A stretch of DNA of 64,000 bases from an uncultured virus (IMG/VR IMGVR_UViG_3300035034_002688) (lineage: Duplodnaviria > Heunggongvirae > Uroviricota > Caudoviricetes): the IMG/VR virus record IMGVR_UViG_3300035034_002688. One strand, given 5' to 3'. Made by a program: the position numbers and the translations under genes. Positions 11-22,672 of this stretch are shown piece after piece. The notes beneath the pieces were generated by a model that worked only from the letters and a program-made list of their open reading frames with translations, did no database searches and was not told the origin of the DNA. Numbering within the stretch: the first letter of the stretch is position 1; each line of letters begins with the position of its first letter.

Positions 11-405
11 CGGGACATCCCCGCGCACGCGGGGAACACGGGTAGAACAAGAAGATGTATGAGAGGGGATCCGGGACATCCCCGCGCACGCGGGGAACAC
101 CGGACGAGCATGGGGAGACGTATTCGCCCTACCGGGACATCCCCGCGCACGCGGGGAACACTTGAAGCTGGAAGGATGCACGAGATGTGCGTGCGGGACA
201 TCCCCGCGCACGCGGGGAACACACAGGTGTGATCACAAGAGCATGTCGCCTCATCGGGACATCCCCGCGCACGCGGGGAACACGTCAAAGCTGGTCACCT
301 TTGGAGCGTGAACGGCGGGACATCCCCGCGCACGCGGGGAACACCATGACACCGACACACCCGCACTTGGTGCATCCGGGACATCCCCGCGCACGCGGGG
401 AACAC
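11..405 (-). CRISPR. CRISPR array 1 (type I-E), 7 repeats / 6 complete spacers, probably continues beyond the left window edge
   Basis: Identical 29-bp repeat GTGTTCCCCGCGTGCGCGGGGATGTCCCG (minus strand) at 11, 72, 133, 194, 255, 316, 377; 61-bp period, 32-bp spacers; hairpin CCCCGCG/CGCGGGG typical of I-E repeats. Confidence 0.98.
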
Positions 406-524: not shown

Positions 525-2732
525 TCAGGAGGCCTTCTTGGTGGGGGCGCGGTAGTAGGTGCGCGTCCACTCCATCTGCGTCTGAGAGCCCCAGGTGAGG
601 AGGCTCAGGATGAGGTCGTTGGCGTCGGCACCCTGACCCTCAATGCGTCCGAGGACGTTGCGGAGCTGGCGCCAGTGGCCGTTCAAGGTGCCTCCCGAAC
701 ACAGGCGCTCGAACGAGCGCTCCTTGATGTCACGAGACTGCGCGAGGACGCGCGCGACGGGGCGGTTGCCCTTGAAGCCGGTGGGCTTGAGGCCCGCGAG
801 CAGGACCGCCAGGAGGAACACGCGCTCCTGCAACTCGGGGGCGTTCTCACCAAGGTTACGCTCCACCACCTTCTCCAGGGCCTTCTCCAGCAGGATGGCG
901 GGGCGCATGTAGCGTACGTCCTGGAGGTTCTTGGCGCGAGAGAGCGCGACGCGGCCGGAGCCCTTGTCGTGGTGGAGGTTGCGCCACCACTTGTGGACCA
1001 CGGAGAGGATCTCATCCTTGTGGGCGTATACGATGTTGTTCATGGGGTTCTTCTCTCTCTTGGTGGAGGTGCCGCAGAGTTTGAGGAGCTGCTTTTCGAG
1101 CCCGGCTCGTTCCCTCACGGCGGATGTGATGGTGCGGGTGTTCATGCGCGATTTGCGAGTGACACGGCCTCCAACGAGGGAGTCGAAGATCGTGAGCGCG
1201 GTGGTCGCGAGGAGGCGCTTGTAGGGCGTATAGACCATCTCCTCAAGCTCCTCCCGGTTGGTCGTGAGCTTGACCTTGGCGAGCGCGTCGTATGCAGCCT
1301 GTTCGGTGTGTGACCACAGCTCGGAGTTGTTCCGGCCTCCCAGGCAGGCGACCTTCGCGCGGAGCACCTTATCCACCTCGGACGTGAGCTTGACCAGCGC
1401 CCCGAAGGTGTCCTCATCACGCAGAGCCTGTGAGCCCTCGAAGATGAAGATGTACTTCTCGAAGAAGCTCACCGTCTTGCCCGCAAACATGTTGAATCCG
1501 AAGACACGCAGCGGGGGAAGCCCTCCCCATACCTCATCCCAATGCTCCGCGACCTCATCGTACAGGAAGGCCTTGCGCTTGGTGTGGGTGATGATTGGGG
1601 GCGTGTGGAGGGTCTCGGAGTAGGCGTGGGAACCCAGAACGTTCCACGTGCGCCTGTTGGTGACGGTCTGCACAGCGCGGACATCTTTCACATCTTTGGG
1701 GGTCCACTTGCCGTTGACGCCCATCGTCTTGAGGTTCTTGAGGGTGGTGGCGTTGTTGGGGAGCTGCCAGACACCCGACATGGGGATGCACTGACGAGAC
1801 CCCGGCAGACCTTCCCACTTCTCGGACTGCGCTGTGTAGCGCTGCCGGTTGCCCCAGGGCTGCGCATCCACGTAGTCCAGGAGCCCGTCCTCATCCGGCT
1901 CCGGCAGGACCCACTCACGCGTGAGGTGCCAGAACGCGGTCAAGGGGTGGTAGTCCAGGTCGTGAGCGCGCCACCCCTCGATCTGACTCTCTTCGACCCA
2001 GGGGAACTCGAACTCGGGGACGGTCTCCTGTCCCCACAGAGCGTTGATTTCAGGTTCAGTGAGGATGTTGTTGAGGACCTCCTCGCAGAGGTCGCGGCCG
2101 CTGAAGACGTACCACAGGCTGCCGTTGTTTCCGTAGCCGGGTCGCGATGTGCCACGTGAGAACTTGTTCCCCGCGTCCATGCGAAACTCGGCCGCCAGGA
2201 TGAACGCGATGGCGTCCCCAGGCGTCAGACGCTGCCGGGGATCACGGCCCAAGTCCATGCTGAAGGGGAGCGGCCGCGTGACCTTCTCCGAGTCGAAGTC
2301 GAAGCCTGAGGAGGAGGACCCCAGCGCGTGCGTGTTGAAGCGGTAGCGGCCTATCTCAGTGGCGCACGGCAGGTCGGACTTCTTGATCTTTCTGATATCT
2401 TCGGTCCACTCGCGCAAGGCGGGCGTGGCCTGGAACGCACGGTACCCCGGCCCGTAGACGTCGAAGAAGTCTTCCTCACTCAGAAAGCGCTTCTTGAAGT
2501 CGAGGTTCTCGCCGCGCGTCAGGTGCATCTCGACCCACTCGTCGTCGTCCTTGGGCGCGGCCACCGTCTGGACCAGTGCCTGAATGAAGTGTCGGACGCC
2601 CTCATTCATTACGGAGTGGGGGTAGTCGAGCTTGAGGCCGGGTTCCGTGAACTCGTGCGGTCGGATGAGCTTGGACTTTCCCGTGGCGTCCTGAACCCGA
2701 ATCCAAGCGTCGGTCATGAGATTGAGTGACAT
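525..2732 (-). CDS. cas8e: Cas8e (Cse1) fused in frame to a C-terminal Cas11 (Cse2)-like domain
   Basis: N-terminus MSLNLMTDAWIRV typical of Cse1; last 172 aa from Met at 1043 (KWWRNL..GSGRVALSRAK...RSFERL...LILSLLTW...EWTRTYY) resemble Cse2; lies next to cas5e and the array. Confidence 0.8.
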   Translation of the reverse strand: MSLNLMTDAWIRVQDATGKSKLIRPHEFTEPGLKLDYPHSVMNEGVRHFIQALVQTVAAPKDDDEWVEMHLTRGENLDFKKRFLSEEDFFDVYGPGYRAFQATPALREWTEDIRKIKKSDLPCATEIGRYRFNTHALGSSSSGFDFDSEKVTRPLPFSMDLGRDPRQRLTPGDAIAFILAAEFRMDAGNKFSRGTSRPGYGNNGSLWYVFSGRDLCEEVLNNILTEPEINALWGQETVPEFEFPWVEESQIEGWRAHDLDYHPLTAFWHLTREWVLPEPDEDGLLDYVDAQPWGNRQRYTAQSEKWEGLPGSRQCIPMSGVWQLPNNATTLKNLKTMGVNGKWTPKDVKDVRAVQTVTNRRTWNVLGSHAYSETLHTPPIITHTKRKAFLYDEVAEHWDEVWGGLPPLRVFGFNMFAGKTVSFFEKYIFIFEGSQALRDEDTFGALVKLTSEVDKVLRAKVACLGGRNNSELWSHTEQAAYDALAKVKLTTNREELEEMVYTPYKRLLATTALTIFDSLVGGRVTRKSRMNTRTITSAVRERAGLEKQLLKLCGTSTKREKNPMNNIVYAHKDEILSVVHKWWRNLHHDKGSGRVALSRAKNLQDVRYMRPAILLEKALEKVVERNLGENAPELQERVFLLAVLLAGLKPTGFKGNRPVARVLAQSRDIKERSFERLCSGGTLNGHWRQLRNVLGRIEGQGADANDLILSLLTWGSQTQMEWTRTYYRAPTKKAS

Positions 2733-2773: not shown

Positions 2774-3484
2774 TCAGAGCGTGTGCATGTGGGCGCTAAA
2801 CTCGCGCCGCACCTTGTGGGACCCTTGACGGGTCAGATCGTGGGGCACATCACGACGGAAGGTTGACCGTCGGCTACCTTCGAGGCCAAAGTCTTCATCC
2901 CAGAACACCTGTCCCGGCACCACGGTTCGGTCAAGGTAGTAGAAGCTACTCGCCACGGCCTCCTCCAGACACTCACGCGGCGTGGTGGACTGTAGGACCC
3001 GTGGATTGAGAGGCGCGCTTGGCGGACAGCTCTTGCGGCCAAAGTAGATAGGCCAGTAGGGACGCTGGAGCGCCGCGATGATACCGTCGACGTCCTCGTC
3101 GGGTACCTGGAGCAGGACCACCCAGGTCTGGTCCTGGAGGTAGTACCTCTCCGAGGTCAGGGAGTCCGTCTTGGGGCTTTGCGGGTCCAGCTCCTCCTGG
3201 CGCGTGGTCACGTAGCCCTTGAAGCAGCGGATGAGGTGGTAGTCTCGAAGCGGCGGGGGGCTCACCGAGGCTCCCTCAAGCTGGAGCTGGACGCACGCCA
3301 TCTTGATGGTGTTTGCCAGCCTCTGGTGGTGAGCCTGATCGTCACGCTCGATGCCTTGCGCGCACGCGATCATCCCGAGTATGGCCGATTTCGTCGGGCT
3401 CTGGTCCGTCGTGCGCAGCGCCGCGCGCGCCGCGTTTCCGAAGCTCATGAGAGGGGCTCGAATGTCGCAGGCGAGTGTTTGCAT
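2774..3484 (-). CDS. cas5e: Type I-E Cas5
   Basis: APLMSFG...RTT..SPTKSAILGMIACAQGIER, RYYLQD, IYFGRKSCPPS motifs; start MQTL at 3484 preceded by AAGGAGG. Confidence 0.93.
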   Translation of the reverse strand: MQTLACDIRAPLMSFGNAARAALRTTDQSPTKSAILGMIACAQGIERDDQAHHQRLANTIKMACVQLQLEGASVSPPPLRDYHLIRCFKGYVTTRQEELDPQSPKTDSLTSERYYLQDQTWVVLLQVPDEDVDGIIAALQRPYWPIYFGRKSCPPSAPLNPRVLQSTTPRECLEEAVASSFYYLDRTVVPGQVFWDEDFGLEGSRRSTFRRDVPHDLTRQGSHKVRREFSAHMHTL

Positions 3485-3495
3485 AGGTACCTCCT

Positions 3496-3538
3496 TTGTG
3501 GTACTCAAAAGATACCACAAGGTTCAAGATGGGGTCAA
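3496..3538 (-). promoter_or_regulatory. sigma70-like promoter for cas5e-cas8e/11 with inverted repeat
   Basis: TTGACC-N18-TATCTT with TGTGG extension; arms TTGTGGTA (3496-3503) and TACCACAA (3513-3520). Confidence 0.6.
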
Positions 3539-3548
3539 GTGGTTCGAT

Positions 3549-4280
3549 TCAGAGGGCCACAAGGGCGGCGGCGGGCTTGAGAAGGACAAGGCCGGCCCCG
3601 AAGGCCTTGCCCCGACCGATGCCGTTGCGCCACAGGGTCACGAACTTCTCGGGGTCGGTGACCTCGACGCGCGCCTCAAGCTGCACGAAGTCCATCGTAA
3701 TGGGGTTGCGCCGTCCCACGCCCTGCTCGGAGAACACGGGGGTCAAGGCGGTGACCCTGTGCAGCTTGAAGCCGCCGTCCTCCGAGCGCCTCTCAAGCCA
3801 CTCGAAGAGGAGGGCGTCGAGGTCGCGAGGCGTCTCCCCATTCGCTTCGCACATGAGCTTCTCGTAGGTCTGGAGACCCAAACGCTTGGAGCGCCCCTTG
3901 GGCACGATCCGCTCGTCACGGGTACAGACGGTGGCGTTGACCCATGCTCGGAGGTCGAGGCCGGCACCCATGTGCATCGTGGGCTGCTCGATCGTCTTGG
4001 TCAGAAGCTTCACGTAGCCGTGAGGGTCCGAGGGGATCTCCGTGGACTGGATGTAGAAGGAGGAGCCCTTGAAGGGGGTGAACATGAAGGGTCGGTCTTT
4101 GCGGTCCTCCACCGGGTCGAAGAGGTCCCAGACGAACTGGTGTGCGGTGTAGATGCCCTCGGACGTGTAGCGGGAGAGCTGCTCGATTCCCTTGGCCGTG
4201 AAGGTGGCGCGTGAGATGTAGAGAGGGGTCGAGGTGGGGGGTGTGGTGGTGTTGAACGGGATGTTGACTTGCGTGCTCAT
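3549..4280 (-). CDS. cas6e: Type I-E Cas6 endoribonuclease
   Basis: HQFVWDLF, LRAWVNAT, WLERRSEDGGF and C-terminal Gly-rich loop GIGRGKAFGAGL; start MSTQ at 4280 with GGAG RBS. Confidence 0.93.
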   Translation of the reverse strand: MSTQVNIPFNTTTPPTSTPLYISRATFTAKGIEQLSRYTSEGIYTAHQFVWDLFDPVEDRKDRPFMFTPFKGSSFYIQSTEIPSDPHGYVKLLTKTIEQPTMHMGAGLDLRAWVNATVCTRDERIVPKGRSKRLGLQTYEKLMCEANGETPRDLDALLFEWLERRSEDGGFKLHRVTALTPVFSEQGVGRRNPITMDFVQLEARVEVTDPEKFVTLWRNGIGRGKAFGAGLVLLKPAAALVAL

Positions 4281-4290
4281 TGATAACTCC

Positions 4291-4351
4291 AAAAATACCC
4301 CCGCACGAGGCGGGGAGGTTGAGAGGGGACCCCCGCGTGAGCGGGGAAAGG
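4291..4351 (-). repeat. Degenerate CRISPR-repeat copy plus second GC hairpin between cas7 and cas6e
   Basis: 4351-4325 reads CCTTTCCCCGCTCACGCGGGGGTCCCC (array 2/3 repeat lacking 2 nt in the 3' handle); 4318-4291 reads CCTCCCCGCCTCGTGCGGGGGTATTTTT. Confidence 0.75.
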
Positions 4352-4356
4352 GGCAC

Positions 4357-5703
4357 TCACTCGGCGGCGGCGGTCTCGGAGGCCTCCACGGCGATACCGA
4401 GCGTCTGGTAGATGGCATCCACGATGTCATCCAGGGTCGTACACACCTCGCCGCCCGACTCCAGGGCCGTGAGGTCCTTGGTCGAGGACCACGTGAGGAC
4501 ACGCTCATGGTCGACGCCCACGCGGGTCACGATGCGGTTGTGGTGGTCCTCCAGGCGCGTGAGGGCCATCTGAAGAGGATCGTTGGACTCCACAGGCACC
4601 AGGAACGCGTCGGTGTACTGAGTGTTCTGGGTCTCCCCGATGGTCACCATCAGGTAGGGGGACGGGATGCTCGCAGCCATCGTGGACTGGTTACCCGAGG
4701 GGCGCACCATCACGAGAGCCTTGACGAAGGCGTGGATGGTCTCACGGAGGAGGTCCTCCTGACCGCTCCCGAAGCGGCGAGCCAGCTCACCGATGTGGAG
4801 GCCCACGTAGGCGTAGTTGACGCCCGAGGTGAAGCTCTTGTGGCCCATATGCGAGGCGCCCGTATTGGAGTTGAAGCAGTCCTGAGCCGAGAAGAAGTCG
4901 TCCTCCTCGGGCATCACGCCGACGCCGATGGTGTGCGCGAACTGGACGCAGGCCGCTTCATTGTCCTGTGCGAGCTGCGCGACCATGCGGCCGAAGAGGC
5001 TCACGTCGACGTTGGGCATCCTCGTGAGGTCCGTGAAGCTCTTCGCGGTCTCAGTCAGGCTCTCGAAGACGACGGAGGGGTCCGTGAAGTCCAGACCCAC
5101 CAGCGCCTCGAAGCCCAGCGTCAAGACCTCCTGCTCCGCCTGCTTGAGCTTGATGGCCGAGCCGAACATGCGGCCGTCCTTCTTGTCGCTCTTTTTGTTC
5201 TTCTTCTTCTTGGTGTCTCCTTCGGACTCGTTCGACTCGTCGTCGAGAGCGTCCTTGGTCGAGTACGGCGTGATGCCTCCCTCGGCGTACAGGGTACCAT
5301 CCGCGATGAGGCCCTTGAGGAGCGTGAGAAGCGCCGCTTCGGTCTTCTTGGTGAGCTTGGCGCCCTTGAAGCACTGCGTGAAGAAGTTCGGCGTCGTCAT
5401 CATGTAGGCGAGCAGCGCGGCGGCTCGATACGACCTCTCAGCCTCCTGGCCCGCCTCGACGGCCTTCTCACTCTTGAAGACCAGGAACGATCTCGTGTTG
5501 TCGCTCATGACCTTGCGCTGACGGAGCACATCGAAGTGCATGGAGGCACGAATCGCCGCCTTCTCCGCTTGGCTGGAGATGCGGTAGCGCATGGCGTTCC
5601 CGAAGAAGGAACTCTTGGGGTTACCCGCGTCATCGCGGTTGATGTTGCTGGGGGGCAGCACACCGAGCATGTGGAACTGGAGCTTTGTTTTCACGTTCAT
5701 CAT
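4357..5703 (-). CDS. cas7: Type I-E Cas7 (Cse4) backbone
   Basis: PPSNINRDDAGNPKS..FG..RYRISSQAEKAAIR and VDVSLFGRMVA motifs. Confidence 0.95.
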   Translation of the reverse strand: MMNVKTKLQFHMLGVLPPSNINRDDAGNPKSSFFGNAMRYRISSQAEKAAIRASMHFDVLRQRKVMSDNTRSFLVFKSEKAVEAGQEAERSYRAAALLAYMMTTPNFFTQCFKGAKLTKKTEAALLTLLKGLIADGTLYAEGGITPYSTKDALDDESNESEGDTKKKKNKKSDKKDGRMFGSAIKLKQAEQEVLTLGFEALVGLDFTDPSVVFESLTETAKSFTDLTRMPNVDVSLFGRMVAQLAQDNEAACVQFAHTIGVGVMPEEDDFFSAQDCFNSNTGASHMGHKSFTSGVNYAYVGLHIGELARRFGSGQEDLLRETIHAFVKALVMVRPSGNQSTMAASIPSPYLMVTIGETQNTQYTDAFLVPVESNDPLQMALTRLEDHHNRIVTRVGVDHERVLTWSSTKDLTALESGGEVCTTLDDIVDAIYQTLGIAVEASETAAAE

Positions 5704-5850: not shown

Positions 5851-8481
5851 CTAGAGGACTTGGAGTCCCAGGATGTGGTCGTAGATGAGGGTGACGGATA
5901 CCGGGGCGCCCTTGGGGGAGAGCTTGGTCATGTTGACCCTCCACGCGTCGGCGGGTGCGCTGAGGTCGTCCACGGTCACGATCAACACGGAGTCGGTAGA
6001 GTGGAACGGGAGCTGCGCCAAAAGTTCGTGCTGCTCCGGGCTCGGGTCGAGCCGCTCTCCGGCCATGTACATGGGGATAGCGATGCCAGAGGCCTTGATG
6101 CCTCCGTTGTGGATACGCCGGAGTCGATCGCCGTCAACGAAGTGGACCTCCCAGATGCACGTAGGGATGGCGTCTCGGGTGTGTATGGCCACGTTCTTAC
6201 CCCACTTGCTGACCGACTCACGGTAGCTGCGGGTGAAGTCGAGAGACCCCAAAACAGCCGATGCTCGCGTCTCCTGGTCACGGGCGGTGGAGGCTTGGTG
6301 CGAGCGGGCCAGACCGGCCGGAATCAGTGCGTTGATGTCGTCCAGGATCTCACGCGTATGGGTGGGAAGCTCCCAGGACCTCAAGGCACACATCGCCGCG
6401 CTGGCGTACACACGGCCTGCATCCCCATAGACGTAAGATGTCCCCCCATGATGAGGGGAGCCGCTGAGCCATTGAGCGTGTGGAGTCCCGGCCAAGGAGG
6501 GCGTGAACAGGCCCATCTCGACGTGCACCTCTTCCCCACTCTCGTGACGCAGGACGCGACCCGAGCGCTGAATCAGGAGGTCGGCCTCGCATACATCGGA
6601 GACGCCCCAGTCAAAGCTGACATCCAAAGACTCCTGGAGCACCTGCGTGCATATGACGATGTAGCCCTCACGCTCTTGGGGATCGGCGCCCTTACCGAAG
6701 CGACGCAGCACCTCGGCGTCACGTACCTCACGGTGTCCGACCGTGTAGCGAGAGTGCAGCAAGAGCACTCGGTCATACCCTGACAAGGCTTCATAGGCCG
6801 CACAGGCGGCGCGCACGGTGTTTCGGAACCACACCACCGCCTCACCTCGGTTGGCTCGCCGGTGCAGCTCTTCCACGATGGGGTCGAGCCCACGCCGATC
6901 CTCTTCAAAGACGTTCCAGTGCACGTGCCGGATCTGGTGTGCGTCCACCGAGACCACGTTGATGTGGCCGCTGGAGCTGACGTGCGTGAGCGCGGGCAAG
7001 GGGACATCGGGGAGGTCTACAACCTCTCCTCGATACGCGGAGGCGAGCGCGCGGCGTGTCTTGGAGTCGCAGGTGGCGCTCATGGCGATCACGGGCTGTC
7101 CCTGTCGCCCGCAGTAGGCGAGCAGGTTACAGAGCAGAGGGAGCATGTGAGCGTCGAAGGCGTGGACCTCATCTATCAGAAGCACGGTACGGGTGAGCGC
7201 GCTCAGTCGCATGGGCGCAAAGTATCGCCCGATCGTCGCCAGGAGGGCTTGGTCTATTGTGCAGACATTGATTTGCGAGAACATGCTCTGTCGGGAGGAC
7301 TTGAGCAGCCACTCGGAGGCGCTAATCAGGCCTCCATTCGAGTTGCGTTGAGCCTTCCACGGCTTGAATTCACTTCGAGTCGAGTGAATGAGCGCCATCG
7401 TGACGGGCTCATCAAAGGTTGCCTCCGTCCAGGCGTGCGCACGCCCGTAGAGGCCGTTGGCGGTAGCGCGAGTAGGCAACGCCAACGTCAGCCCTTTGTA
7501 GTCGCCATCACGCATCATCTGACGCGCGAGCGCGAGCCCTACCTCCGTCTTACCCGCCCCCGTAGAGGCCTCGATGAGGACAAACCCGTCCGCAGAACTC
7601 AAGAGGGTCTCAGCACCTACCTGGAGAGGCCGAGGTTCCCAGGTATCGTCGAGGAGACCGCTCCAGAAGGAGTAGGTGGTAGAGAGGGGCGTGTAGAGGA
7701 TCTCCACGTCTGTACACGCCCTCTCCGCTTGAGGCTGTGCGATGGTCTCCCAATAAGCTCTCGGGTCCATACGCGCGCCACGCAGCGGGAAGTATTCAGG
7801 CGTGGAGCCCAGCCAATCCGAGATCATCCCGACGCCCGCCAGGAGGTAGCTCGCGAAAGGCAGGTCCGGAGGGTTGGAGTAGTCGCCACGCATGGGTCCA
7901 AATACGCCCTGGATGATTTCGGAGAGGTACGCAGTCAGGCGCTCGTCGCACCCAGGCACTCCCCACTGGAGCTGAGCCGTACGTGGGGTGGCGCCTTCTC
8001 GCTTCTGATGAGGCAAGGCGTAGCCGTGATGGCTCAGCGCGCTATGCAGCAGCGTCGTGATGTGGCGTCGTTCCTGACGCCCAGTACCGCTCTTGAGGTA
8101 CTCCCGGATCACGTTCCTGCGTTCCCATCCCACCAGATCGTGACGGGCTTCGGTCTCACGCGCACCATCAGGCTGGGGGGTGATATCCAGGAGCGTACAG
8201 GCGGGTGCGCTTCGAGCCTGGAAGTTGTCCGTGAGCTTACCGATGTCATGGCAAGCGTAGAGCATGGGGAGGTCATGCCACAGGTCGTACATGCTCACAC
8301 CCAAGGCCTCCGACAAGGGACGCCACCAACGCTCCTCGTGCCTGAGCAAGTGATTCACGACCGCCGCGACGTCGAGGTTATGATACACCACGCGGTGAAT
8401 GGCAGTCACGGCCTCTTGTGAGCCGGGAGGCTGGTCTGTCTTGGCCCAACAGTCCCACATACCGATAGGTTTGGTCGTCAT
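5851..8481 (-). CDS. cas3: Cas3 HD nuclease-SF2 helicase
   Basis: WAKT, HNLDV, CHDIGK, SHHG, SDWLGS (HD domain); EASTGAGKTE, LPTRAT, DEVH, SAT, LHSRY, TQV..SLD, QRSGRVLRH (helicase). Confidence 0.97.
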   Translation of the reverse strand: MTTKPIGMWDCWAKTDQPPGSQEAVTAIHRVVYHNLDVAAVVNHLLRHEERWWRPLSEALGVSMYDLWHDLPMLYACHDIGKLTDNFQARSAPACTLLDITPQPDGARETEARHDLVGWERRNVIREYLKSGTGRQERRHITTLLHSALSHHGYALPHQKREGATPRTAQLQWGVPGCDERLTAYLSEIIQGVFGPMRGDYSNPPDLPFASYLLAGVGMISDWLGSTPEYFPLRGARMDPRAYWETIAQPQAERACTDVEILYTPLSTTYSFWSGLLDDTWEPRPLQVGAETLLSSADGFVLIEASTGAGKTEVGLALARQMMRDGDYKGLTLALPTRATANGLYGRAHAWTEATFDEPVTMALIHSTRSEFKPWKAQRNSNGGLISASEWLLKSSRQSMFSQINVCTIDQALLATIGRYFAPMRLSALTRTVLLIDEVHAFDAHMLPLLCNLLAYCGRQGQPVIAMSATCDSKTRRALASAYRGEVVDLPDVPLPALTHVSSSGHINVVSVDAHQIRHVHWNVFEEDRRGLDPIVEELHRRANRGEAVVWFRNTVRAACAAYEALSGYDRVLLLHSRYTVGHREVRDAEVLRRFGKGADPQEREGYIVICTQVLQESLDVSFDWGVSDVCEADLLIQRSGRVLRHESGEEVHVEMGLFTPSLAGTPHAQWLSGSPHHGGTSYVYGDAGRVYASAAMCALRSWELPTHTREILDDINALIPAGLARSHQASTARDQETRASAVLGSLDFTRSYRESVSKWGKNVAIHTRDAIPTCIWEVHFVDGDRLRRIHNGGIKASGIAIPMYMAGERLDPSPEQHELLAQLPFHSTDSVLIVTVDDLSAPADAWRVNMTKLSPKGAPVSVTLIYDHILGLQVL

Positions 8482-8744
8482 GTAGCTCTCAGCTTGGCGA
8501 GATGAATGGCGTGCTTGTATTTGGCCGATTCCACGTAGGTGGAGCTTCCCAGGAGCTTCGAGCCTCCTGACGAAGAGAAGAAGCGGGCGAGGTAGGGGGG
8601 GTTCTTCTTGTAGGAGGTCTCGGAGCGGTGAATCTCCATACGACCCTCGGGGACCTCACATGTGAAGTAGCGCGTAAGCCCAGCGGGACCGTGAACTTCC
8701 CATTGCAGCGTCTTGGAGAGCTTCTCGGCAGCCGTGATTTCCAT
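8478..8744 (-). CDS. Hypothetical protein (88 aa) translationally coupled to cas3
   Basis: Start MEIT at 8744 overlaps upstream stop (TGATG); its stop overlaps the cas3 start (ATGA). Confidence 0.65.
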   Translation of the reverse strand: MEITAAEKLSKTLQWEVHGPAGLTRYFTCEVPEGRMEIHRSETSYKKNPPYLARFFSSSGGSKLLGSSTYVESAKYKHAIHLAKLRAT

Positions 8745-9112
8745 CAAGCCACCTCTACGGGCGCGCCGCACAGGTGGCAGAACTGCGAGGCGGGGATCAG
8801 CTCAGTCCCGCAGTTGTGGCAATACACGGCCTTACGGGGACCCTCCACCTCGAACTCCCCGAGCAGGTCGAGGTACGTATCATCCCTGCATCCCGCCAAG
8901 GAGAGTCGAATGCCGGGGAGGAGGTCGTCGTGGTGGTAGTCATGACCCTTGTGCAACAAGGTCGCGTTGTCTGCGTTGGGGGGACCCTGGAGGTCATTGA
9001 CCCTACGCCCTCCAGGCTTGAAGACCCATAGCCGCACGGGGTACCCTCGATCAAACTCCAGCTCTCCGGTGCGACCTGTTGTGGATGCGACTTCATACTC
9101 ATGATGTTTCAT
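8744..9112 (-). CDS. Hypothetical protein with C-terminal zinc ribbon
   Basis: AGGAGG RBS; CHNCG...FCHLCG at C-terminus. Confidence 0.75.
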   Translation of the reverse strand: MKHHEYEVASTTGRTGELEFDRGYPVRLWVFKPGGRRVNDLQGPPNADNATLLHKGHDYHHDDLLPGIRLSLAGCRDDTYLDLLGEFEVEGPRKAVYCHNCGTELIPASQFCHLCGAPVEVA

Positions 9113-11627: not shown

Positions 11628-12227
11628 CCTTTCCCCACGCACGTGGGGATGTTCCCATGTAGCAAGACATGTAGTAGGAGGCGCTGGGCCTTTCCCCACG
11701 CACGTGGGGATGTTCCCTACAGGAGTTCCTTGGGGGCTATCTGAGGGGGCCTTTCCCCACGCACGTGGGGATGTTCCCGTGGGGCGGTCTGGATGAGGCA
11801 GGCATCCTCACCTTTCCCCACGCACGTGGGGATGTTCCGCGTCCGCATCAAGGGCCGCAACCTGGGTGGGCCCTTTCCCCACGCACGTGGGGATGTTCCC
11901 TCACCTCGAAGGGTCCCCGCCCCCTCAAAGTCCCTTTCCCCACGCACGTGGGGATGTTCCCTTCCTCCAGGATCTCAGTGTCTTCGGGAACGTCCTTTCC
12001 CCACGCACGTGGGGCTGTTCCTGTTCCTGTTCCTGTTCCTGTTCCGCCTTGGCTCCCAGGACCATCGCTCGTGACGAGCCCTTCCCCGTACACGCGGGGG
12101 TGTTCCCTCTGTGCTACCGCAGCGTCGACCTTGGCCCCCTTCCCCGCACACGCGGGGATGTCCCGTCCAAAATCGTCCGTGGTCCCCCGTGAGGCCCTCT
12201 TCCCCACGCACGTGGGGACTTTGTTCC
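11628..12227 (+). CRISPR. CRISPR array 3, 10 repeats / 9 spacers, degenerate distal end
   Basis: Repeat CCTTTCCCCACGCACGTGGGGATGTTCC(C/G) at 11628, 11689, 11750, 11811, 11872, 11933, 11994; variant repeats at 12079, 12137, 12197. Confidence 0.97.
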
Positions 12228-22391: not shown

Positions 22392-22672
22392 CACGCCCAC
22401 AGCGGCCGTTTCTTCTCACACATGAAGTCCACGGACAGCCCCTCTCGGACCCTGACCAGCTCCTCCCGGTCAAACACATCATCGACGAAGACGGCCTCCT
22501 TCATCTTCTCTTGCAGGGCTTTATCAGCGGACACGAAGGCTCTTACGGCCTCCTCCAGCTCTGCCAGAACGTCGACTCCTCTCTTAACCCGGTCACGTCG
22601 GGCTTCCACCTCAACATGACCGGCCAGCTCTTCGACCATACAGGCCACGACCAGCTCGAACATTTTTTCCAT
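22391..22672 (-). CDS. Hypothetical protein
   Basis: Start MEKMF after GAGGTG; TTTACG/TGTGGTATA promoter at 22776-22748. Confidence 0.6.
   Translation of the reverse strand: MEKMFELVVACMVEELAGHVEVEARRDRVKRGVDVLAELEEAVRAFVSADKALQEKMKEAVFVDDVFDREELVRVREGLSVDFMCEKKRPLWA

Follow-up and report, generated by a model that had tools for sequence, protein, structure and literature searches.

A type I-E cas8e-cas11 gene fusion in a huge phage, with a putative internal start for Cas11

When the large- and small-subunit genes of a type I-E CRISPR locus are joined into one reading frame, does the locus still supply free Cas11? The question is raised by a stretch of 64,000 nucleotides (nt), hereafter the window, from the uncultured virus IMGVR_UViG_3300035034_002688, in which Cas8e is followed in frame by Cas11. 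Type I-E, the textbook Cascade, is the subtype usually cited as having its small subunit encoded by a gene of its own. The large-subunit genes that supply Cas11 in subtypes I-B, I-C and I-D encode Cas8b, Cas8c and Cas10d. Reports on these three subtypes describe Cas11 as translated internally, in frame, from the large-subunit gene (McBride et al., bioRxiv 10.1101/2020.04.18.045682; PMC7684278; 10.1101/2024.10.02.616218), and the first of them names I-A and I-E as those type I subtypes in which Cas11 is separate. Our comparisons make it near certain that the I-E fusion in the window is real and conserved; the use of its inner start is weighed below.

A sequence-only reading of this DNA had described one open reading frame (ORF) of 735 amino acids (aa) at 525..2732, whose last 172 aa begin at a Met at 1043, follow a purine-rich run and resemble Cse2. 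All of these features are present, and they lie on the minus strand, which that reading had left unstated. The gene and its parts are the following:

525..2732, minus strand: cas8e::cas11 fused gene, encoding P0001, 735 aa with an ATG start; a single ORF matched by both Cse1 and Cse2 profiles.
1074..2732, minus strand: Cas8e (Cse1) part, residues 1-553, identified by PF09481, PADLOC Cas8e models and the modelled secondary structure.
1044..1073, minus strand: linker, residues 554-563 (TSTKREKNP and neighbours), non-helical at 554-562 in the model and poorly conserved in its alignment columns.
1050..1061, minus strand: purine-rich, Shine-Dalgarno (SD)-like run AAGAGAGAGAAG, which lies 6 nt ahead of the inner ATG and includes AGA (R559).
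1041..1043, minus strand: inner ATG, Met564, the putative start of free Cas11, aligned with the first Met of stand-alone Cas11e.
525..1043, minus strand: Cas11 (Cse2) part, 172 aa plus stop, identified by TIGR02548, PADLOC Cas11e models and the Cse2 fold.

Profile searches find both subunits in P0001. Pfam PF09481 (CRISPR_Cse1) matches residues 4-500 with an E-value of 1.6e-18 and 67.6 bits against a cut-off of 24.7. The stricter NCBIfam equivalog TIGR02547 reaches 41.6 bits, under its cut-off of 70.05, over residues 4-127 only, and we therefore regard P0001 as a divergent member of the Cas8e family. In the C-terminal part, residues 579-729 match NCBIfam TIGR02548 (casB_cse2) at 38.0 bits, above the curated cut-off of 28.5, and the match spans profile positions 2-166 of 167. 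PADLOC assigns four Cas8e and three Cas11e models to the whole protein; when the 172-aa part is searched by itself, four Cas11e models are found (E 6e-10 to 7e-8).

Structure prediction of the two halves, which the sequence-only reading had proposed as a check, returned the folds of Cse1 and Cse2. We ran AlphaFold2 on 63 aligned sequences, comprising P0072 and 62 of the 70 HMMER hits described below, with eight fragments excluded (P0016, P0021, P0036, P0037, P0054, P0060, P0067 and P0069). The model of the 735-aa protein has a predicted local distance difference test (pLDDT) score of 79.6 and a predicted TM-score (pTM) of 0.74. In Foldseek searches, the Cse1 matches are 4u7u_M of E. coli Cascade (E 2.7e-14, TMt 0.71) and 4an8_A (TMt 0.69), and the all-helical Cse2 matches are 4tvx_J (TMt 0.66), 5h9e_C (0.70), 4qyz_B (0.72) and 2zca_A (0.63). 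The Cas8e part of the model ends in a four-helix bundle (helices 442-462, 472-487, 493-527 and 532-553), and the Cas11 helices begin at residue 563. A linker of 50-60 residues, suggested by the gap between the profile matches (500-579), was rejected, since the model puts the last two helices of the Cas8e bundle there and leaves a linker of only about 10 residues. A complex prediction of residues 430-735 with free Cas11 scored 0.00, and the predictor gave no usable answer.

The same fused build is found in distant relatives. When 1.84 billion representative proteins were searched exhaustively with HMMER, 70 reached E <= 0.001. Of these, P0002 (726 aa, 31% identity) and P0003 (718 aa, 30%) can be aligned with P0001 from one end to the other, and P0006 (688 aa) matches it in both parts. 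Each of these three carries Cas8e as well as Cas11e models, at 25-31% identity; five other long hits (597-619 aa) and P0004 carry Cas8e models only. P0004, P0005 and P0008 are the closest relatives without the fusion. A protein 94% identical to P0002, P0072, is encoded in a 437-kb phage (G001, locus L005) that has terminal repeats and is rated 100% complete, and it is 27-30% identical to P0001. We sought a separate cse2 across this complete genome, and the sole Cse2 match sits in the fused frame. For the lack of a separate cas11 gene we rely on this relative, because the 125-kb virus record that includes the window is rated only 27% complete. The sequence-only reading had suggested homologues as one way to tell one ORF from two, and P0002/P0072, P0003 and P0006 are all fused. 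A further hit outside the window, P0063 (229 aa), matches Cas11e models only and has a 70-residue N-terminal extension; its contigs are short, and it may be a fragment of another fusion or have a mis-called start.

Two other contigs carry the window's own gene or a part of it. A 366-kb metagenome contig is identical over all 8732 bases compared, and for that reason gives no independent support. The second (X2, 264 nt) comes from a different sample and study; over 1030-1293 it is identical and free of indels. It reaches only 14 nt beyond the ATG's first base, too short to bridge the ATG itself, and covers the 250 nt upstream. In the frame whose stop would be the TGA that overlaps the ATG, the upstream DNA stays open for 24 codons only. 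The present frame can be aligned to the relatives as far as about residue 553.

Searches beyond these lineages returned few or no candidates. Word-indexed protein searches with the whole of P0001 and with the C-terminal part of P0006 each matched the query itself only. Running the Cas11 profile against longer proteins gave only P0001 among the matches listed, with candidates crowded out, which is weak evidence on rarity. Locus scans of viral contigs with P0001, P0003, P0006, P0008 and P0004 yielded nothing useful. Searched with an alignment (A1), a metagenome collection returned the same phage again and one ordinary Cas8e, and a genome collection returned 15 ordinary Cas8e loci. P0001 had no match among GenBank phages, and none of 35 plasmid records covers 80% of the fused P0006. 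A sample of 401 genomes from one phylum includes 32 with Cse2; the open frames concerned measure 147-416 aa, in every case too short for a whole Cas8e plus Cas11. Judged from the GenBank phages, the plasmids and this genome sample, Cas8e-Cas11 fusions are rare outside the fused lineages.

How might such a frame arise? On the minus strand, the joint consists of AAGAGAGAGAAG (1050-1061) followed by AACCCC ATG AAC. It reads CCC ATG A, as the sequence-only reading had it, and the window joint AAGAGAGAGAAGAACCCC ATG A looks like an ordinary ATGA joint moved by one base. At 16 ordinary I-E loci, cas8e and cas11 share an ATGA overlap in 12, overlap by 8 nt in three and are separated by an 82-nt gap in one; a purine-rich site lies within the last cas8e codons. 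In the 437-kb phage, the joint is GCC ATG C, without TGA and without the ATGA tetranucleotide.

To place the fusions we built a quick maximum-likelihood tree of the Cas8e parts from 58 of the 63 alignment rows, the five Cas11-only rows being dropped. P0001, P0003 and P0002/P0072 cluster together (SH-aLRT 96) inside a set of unfused proteins, and P0006 falls in the other main branch (SH-aLRT 99); the tree has many long branches, and the tool warns of long-branch joins. At least two changes of state are needed, which points to two or more origins of the fusion within I-E.

The joint also has the look of a translation start. An in-frame start codon and a putative ribosome-binding site stand at the domain boundary of P0001, and both Met564 and Met553, its counterpart in the 437-kb phage, fall in the alignment column of the Met with which stand-alone Cas11e proteins begin. 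We compared the Met564 site with two sets from the window's phage, 468 internal in-frame ATGs and the starts of 97 ORFs called by third-position G+C, with the first ATG, GTG or TTG taken as the start. Pairing of the 17 nt before Met564 with an assumed motif of the 16S rRNA tail gives a duplex energy of -5.3 or -6.7 kcal/mol, as good as that of about half to two thirds of gene starts. Many genes of this phage have AAGGAG-type sites; several, including cas3 and cas7, have GAGAG-type sites like that of Met564.

The mRNA around Met564 (-30 to +33) is unusually open, at -4.4 kcal/mol compared to a mean of -17.5 for the internal ATGs and -11.9 for the gene starts. Two of the 468 internal ATGs are as unstructured; the other is at codon 37 of an ORF and, because AAGGGAG lies upstream, is probably the true start of its gene. 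For the 437-kb phage we took the first 160 kb, with 569 internal ATGs; six match the joint ATG on both measures, five of them at codons 33-65. In both genomes the joint ATG (codon 553 in the 437-kb phage) is the only deep internal ATG that combines an SD-like site with unstructured mRNA. When the window joint was shuffled synonymously, 2.2% of shuffles were as unstructured and 0.35% matched on both measures. The AGA in its purine run is a rare Arg codon (87 of 2312 Arg codons, 3.8%). These start-like statistics in two phage genomes support internal translation, and our reading of the sequences leans to a functional inner start that releases free Cas11.

The account that we favor, and hold to be rather probable as a whole, is that of an I-E Cas8e carrying Cas11 in frame on a linker of about 10 residues, with a frameshift origin and internal translation. 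In the ancestor of the huge-phage clade, a one-base shift within the last ~10 codons of cas8e would have removed the stop of the ATGA overlap. The old cas11 initiation region, namely the SD-like site, the ATG and the unstructured mRNA, would remain within the fused gene, and ribosomes would start at Met564 as well as at codon 1. The predicted products are an 83-kDa Cas8e-Cas11 protein and a free 19.5-kDa Cas11, and one tethered and one free Cas11 could then fill the two small-subunit places along a backbone of six Cas7, a number implied by the spacers, which are 32 nt long as in canonical I-E. Of this account we infer the frameshift origin, translation from Met564 and the stoichiometry. That the I-E clade of huge phages independently re-invented the one-gene, two-products strategy of I-B, I-C and I-D, and stands as a natural intermediate, is a step further that we hold only slightly likelier than its opposite.

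The strongest competitor accepts the fusion and drops the second product. Only the full-length protein would be made, a single tethered Cas11 would lie beside the Cas8e bundle, and the start-like features would be a by-product of a linker that is hydrophilic and rich in purines, as well as a relic of the former cas11 start; the second small-subunit place would be empty or covered, for example by an enlarged Cas7, and Cas7 is indeed 448 aa in the window and 496 aa in the 437-kb phage against a 361-position profile. Several observations weigh on this side and against a working inner start. The aligned Met is missing in two of the four fused lineages, where P0003 has Ser and P0006 has Pro, each after Val. 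The SD energy alone is unremarkable, since 26% or 14% of the 468 internal ATGs equal that of Met564, and gene-start calls on the 125-kb record are crude. In the 437-kb phage, 32% of synonymous shuffles are as unstructured and 70% as SD-like; the low structure and SD-like run of this joint follow from the amino acids of a Lys/Glu-rich linker and require no selection on the RNA. In E. coli, Cas11 is reported to be dispensable both for silencing and for interference with plasmids (PMC12235044); in a Cas5-HNH variant of I-E it was dispensable for indel formation, with reduced activity (PMC10910872). Because Cas11 is reported to be dispensable for some I-E functions, one tethered copy might suffice. 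Against this stand the unique position of the joint ATG among deep internal ATGs in both genomes, the synonymous-site signal of the window on both measures together with its rare AGA codon, the retention of the ATG and purine run across proteins about 30% identical, and 32-nt spacers, which imply a small-subunit filament of canonical length. We give the full-length-only reading real weight and consider it distinctly the less probable. The internal translation proposed by the sequence-only reading is supported in part: sequence statistics from both phages favor it, as does the complete relative, which has no separate cse2, and a Met missing from two of four lineages and a synonymous signal confined to the window speak against.

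The remaining rivals fare worse. Release of Cas11 by a protease that cuts the finished chain in the linker, with no internal initiation, would suit a linker that is short, exposed, non-helical and of lower pLDDT in the model, the one point in its favor; near the locus, neither a protease gene nor a cleavage motif turned up, and cutting would give a 1:1 ratio with no tethered copy and leave the kept start features unexplained, so we consider it very improbable. Even harder to credit is an artefact, in which a mistake in sequencing or assembly, or the very recent loss of 1 nt in this one genome, hides two genes with an ATGA overlap; the sequence-only reading had raised this as a caveat. Its appeal lies in the CCC ATG A joint, given that such overlaps are the rule (12 of 16 ordinary loci), and the identical gene on the 366-kb contig is not independent. 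However, we reject both the assembly error and the recent deletion on the sequence evidence, because the fused frame is common to P0002/P0072, P0003 and P0006 at 25-31% identity, the second-sample contig X2 is identical over the region and the alternative frame is open for 24 codons only, where the present one aligns to residue 553. The relative's GCC ATG C joint, which has no TGA, and its complete genome without a separate cse2 likewise argue against an artefact.

If the favored account is true, the window gene would be a natural intermediate, in which a large-small subunit fusion with internal translation has arisen from ATGA-coupled genes and the old cas11 start is still used. A conserved Cas8e-Cas11 fusion that keeps an inner start would give a testable picture of how the fused I-B, I-C and I-D genes arose from overlapping genes, and it bears on a question left open in a passage of McBride et al. 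(10.1101/2020.04.18.045682), whether such fusions occurred more than once. There would be practical consequences as well: a gene recoded for Cascade expression in genome editing would lose the inner start, and perhaps activity, and the saving of one Cascade gene is attractive in the design of compact type I tools.

Among the known systems close to the locus is canonical I-E, as in E. coli K-12 (CasA/Cse1, CasB/Cse2), Thermus thermophilus and Thermobifida fusca. The locus shares with them the same six interference families, a 29-nt repeat with the typical GTGTTCCCCGCG...CGGGGAT hairpin, 32-nt spacers, and the Cse1 and Cse2 folds of PDB entries 4u7u, 4tvx, 5h9e and 2zca. In contrast to canonical I-E, cas8e and cas11 are one gene and not two with an ATGA overlap, Cas11 being joined in frame to Cas8e instead of having a gene of its own. 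The canonical order is given in a passage of PMC4762764 as cas3-cse1-cse2-cas7-cas5-cas6-cas1-cas2, whereas the window has cas3-cas7-cas6-cas5-cas8e::cas11, no cas1 was found, the carrier is a huge phage and the sequence is very divergent. With I-B, I-C and I-D the locus has in common a Cas11-like C-terminal domain, an in-frame ATG after a GA-rich site at the boundary and no separate cas11; it differs in that the large subunit is a full Cas8e with its own four-helix bundle, to which a whole Cse2 is appended, and in that the small protein is only putative here.

This is not a new kind of system, as a cas8-cas11 fusion is once in print. One sentence in the relevant passage of Altae-Tran et al. 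2023 (PMC10910872) mentions it for HNH-armed type I variants, covering Cas8-HNH (I-F1-related) and Cas5-HNH (I-E-related). Those variants resemble the window locus as natural large-small subunit fusions, including the I-E-related Cas5-HNH context. Most of them, as described in that passage, lack cas3 and carry HNH in cas8 or cas5, whereas the window locus has a full Cas3; the passage contains no analysis of an inner start. Beyond this mention, the parts of the literature that we consulted yielded no described natural Cse1-Cse2 or Cas8e-Cas11 fusion, and the huge-phage literature yielded no I-E example, PMC7162821 having no occurrence of I-E, Cas8 or Cascade.

The fused gene is encoded beside cas7e, cas5e, cas6e, cas3 and an I-E type array, and the Pfam and NCBIfam profiles find all six interference gene families of canonical I-E. 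On the minus strand the order is cas3-cas7-cas6e-cas5e-cas8e::cas11-array, and the gene order is common to the window and the 437-kb phage:

5851..8481, minus strand: cas3 (HD nuclease and helicase), 876 aa; PF18019, PF22590, TIGR01587 and NF007248.
4357..5703, minus strand: cas7e, 448 aa; PF09344 (E 5.6e-58) and TIGR01869 (182 bits).
3549..4280, minus strand: cas6e; PF08798 and TIGR01907 match from residue 96-97 of a long ORF.
2774..3520, minus strand: cas5e; PF09704 (E 9e-34) and TIGR01868 (E 2e-41).
11..405, minus strand: CRISPR array with seven 29-nt repeats (GTGTTCCCCGCGTGCGCGGGGATGTCCCG) and six 32-nt spacers, located downstream of the fused gene at a distance of 119 nt.

The cas6e ATG at 4278-4280 has GGAG upstream, and the true start of cas5e is probably an ATG a few codons inside the ORF, with AAGGAGG ahead of it. 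An extension of the array to the left of the window was looked for, and the array ends there. We searched for cas1 in the window's 125-kb record and in the complete 437-kb phage and found none. There is no HNH match among the Pfam and NCBIfam matches listed for the window's cas proteins.

The I-E locus is carried by a huge phage. The window has a G+C content of 61% and holds phage genes for a DNA polymerase, a primase-helicase, PhoH and tail proteins, and the runs containing its sequence are labelled lake-water metagenomes. The 437-kb phage shares the fusion, the Met column and the start-like features of the joint; it differs in its array, which lies inside the operon between cas7 and cas6, whereas that of the window lies beyond the fused gene. 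This intra-operon array (L005:5700-6045) has about six I-E type repeats and sits after the cas7 stop and before the cas6 start. At the same place, directly ahead of the cas6e ATG, a pair of degenerate hairpins that resemble repeats is present in the window (4290-4350, minus strand): CCCCGC-TCAC-GCGGGG and CCCCGC-CTCGT-GCGGGG. These hairpins could be Cas6e sites in the operon's own mRNA.

A second mini-array lies about 3.4 kb past cas3 on the opposite strand (window 11871-12021, plus strand), with 2.5 copies of a related repeat (TTTCCCCACGCACGTGGGGATG) at a period of 61. An ORF of 122 aa whose C-terminal part is a zinc-ribbon (PF13240, E 3.9e-7) lies upstream of cas3, at 8744-9112 on the minus strand; it may be a regulator or accessory protein of the cas locus, and a 97-aa ORF with no family match stands between it and cas3. 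Finally, an element of the form ttttacgac..ccctcctt (GTGGTATATA) recurs ahead of several minus-strand ORFs of the window's phage, near 22575, 46590, 76187 and 113950 in the coordinates of the 125-kb record (G000), where 76187 corresponds to window 28054; it has the appearance of a promoter or intergenic element repeated in the phage.

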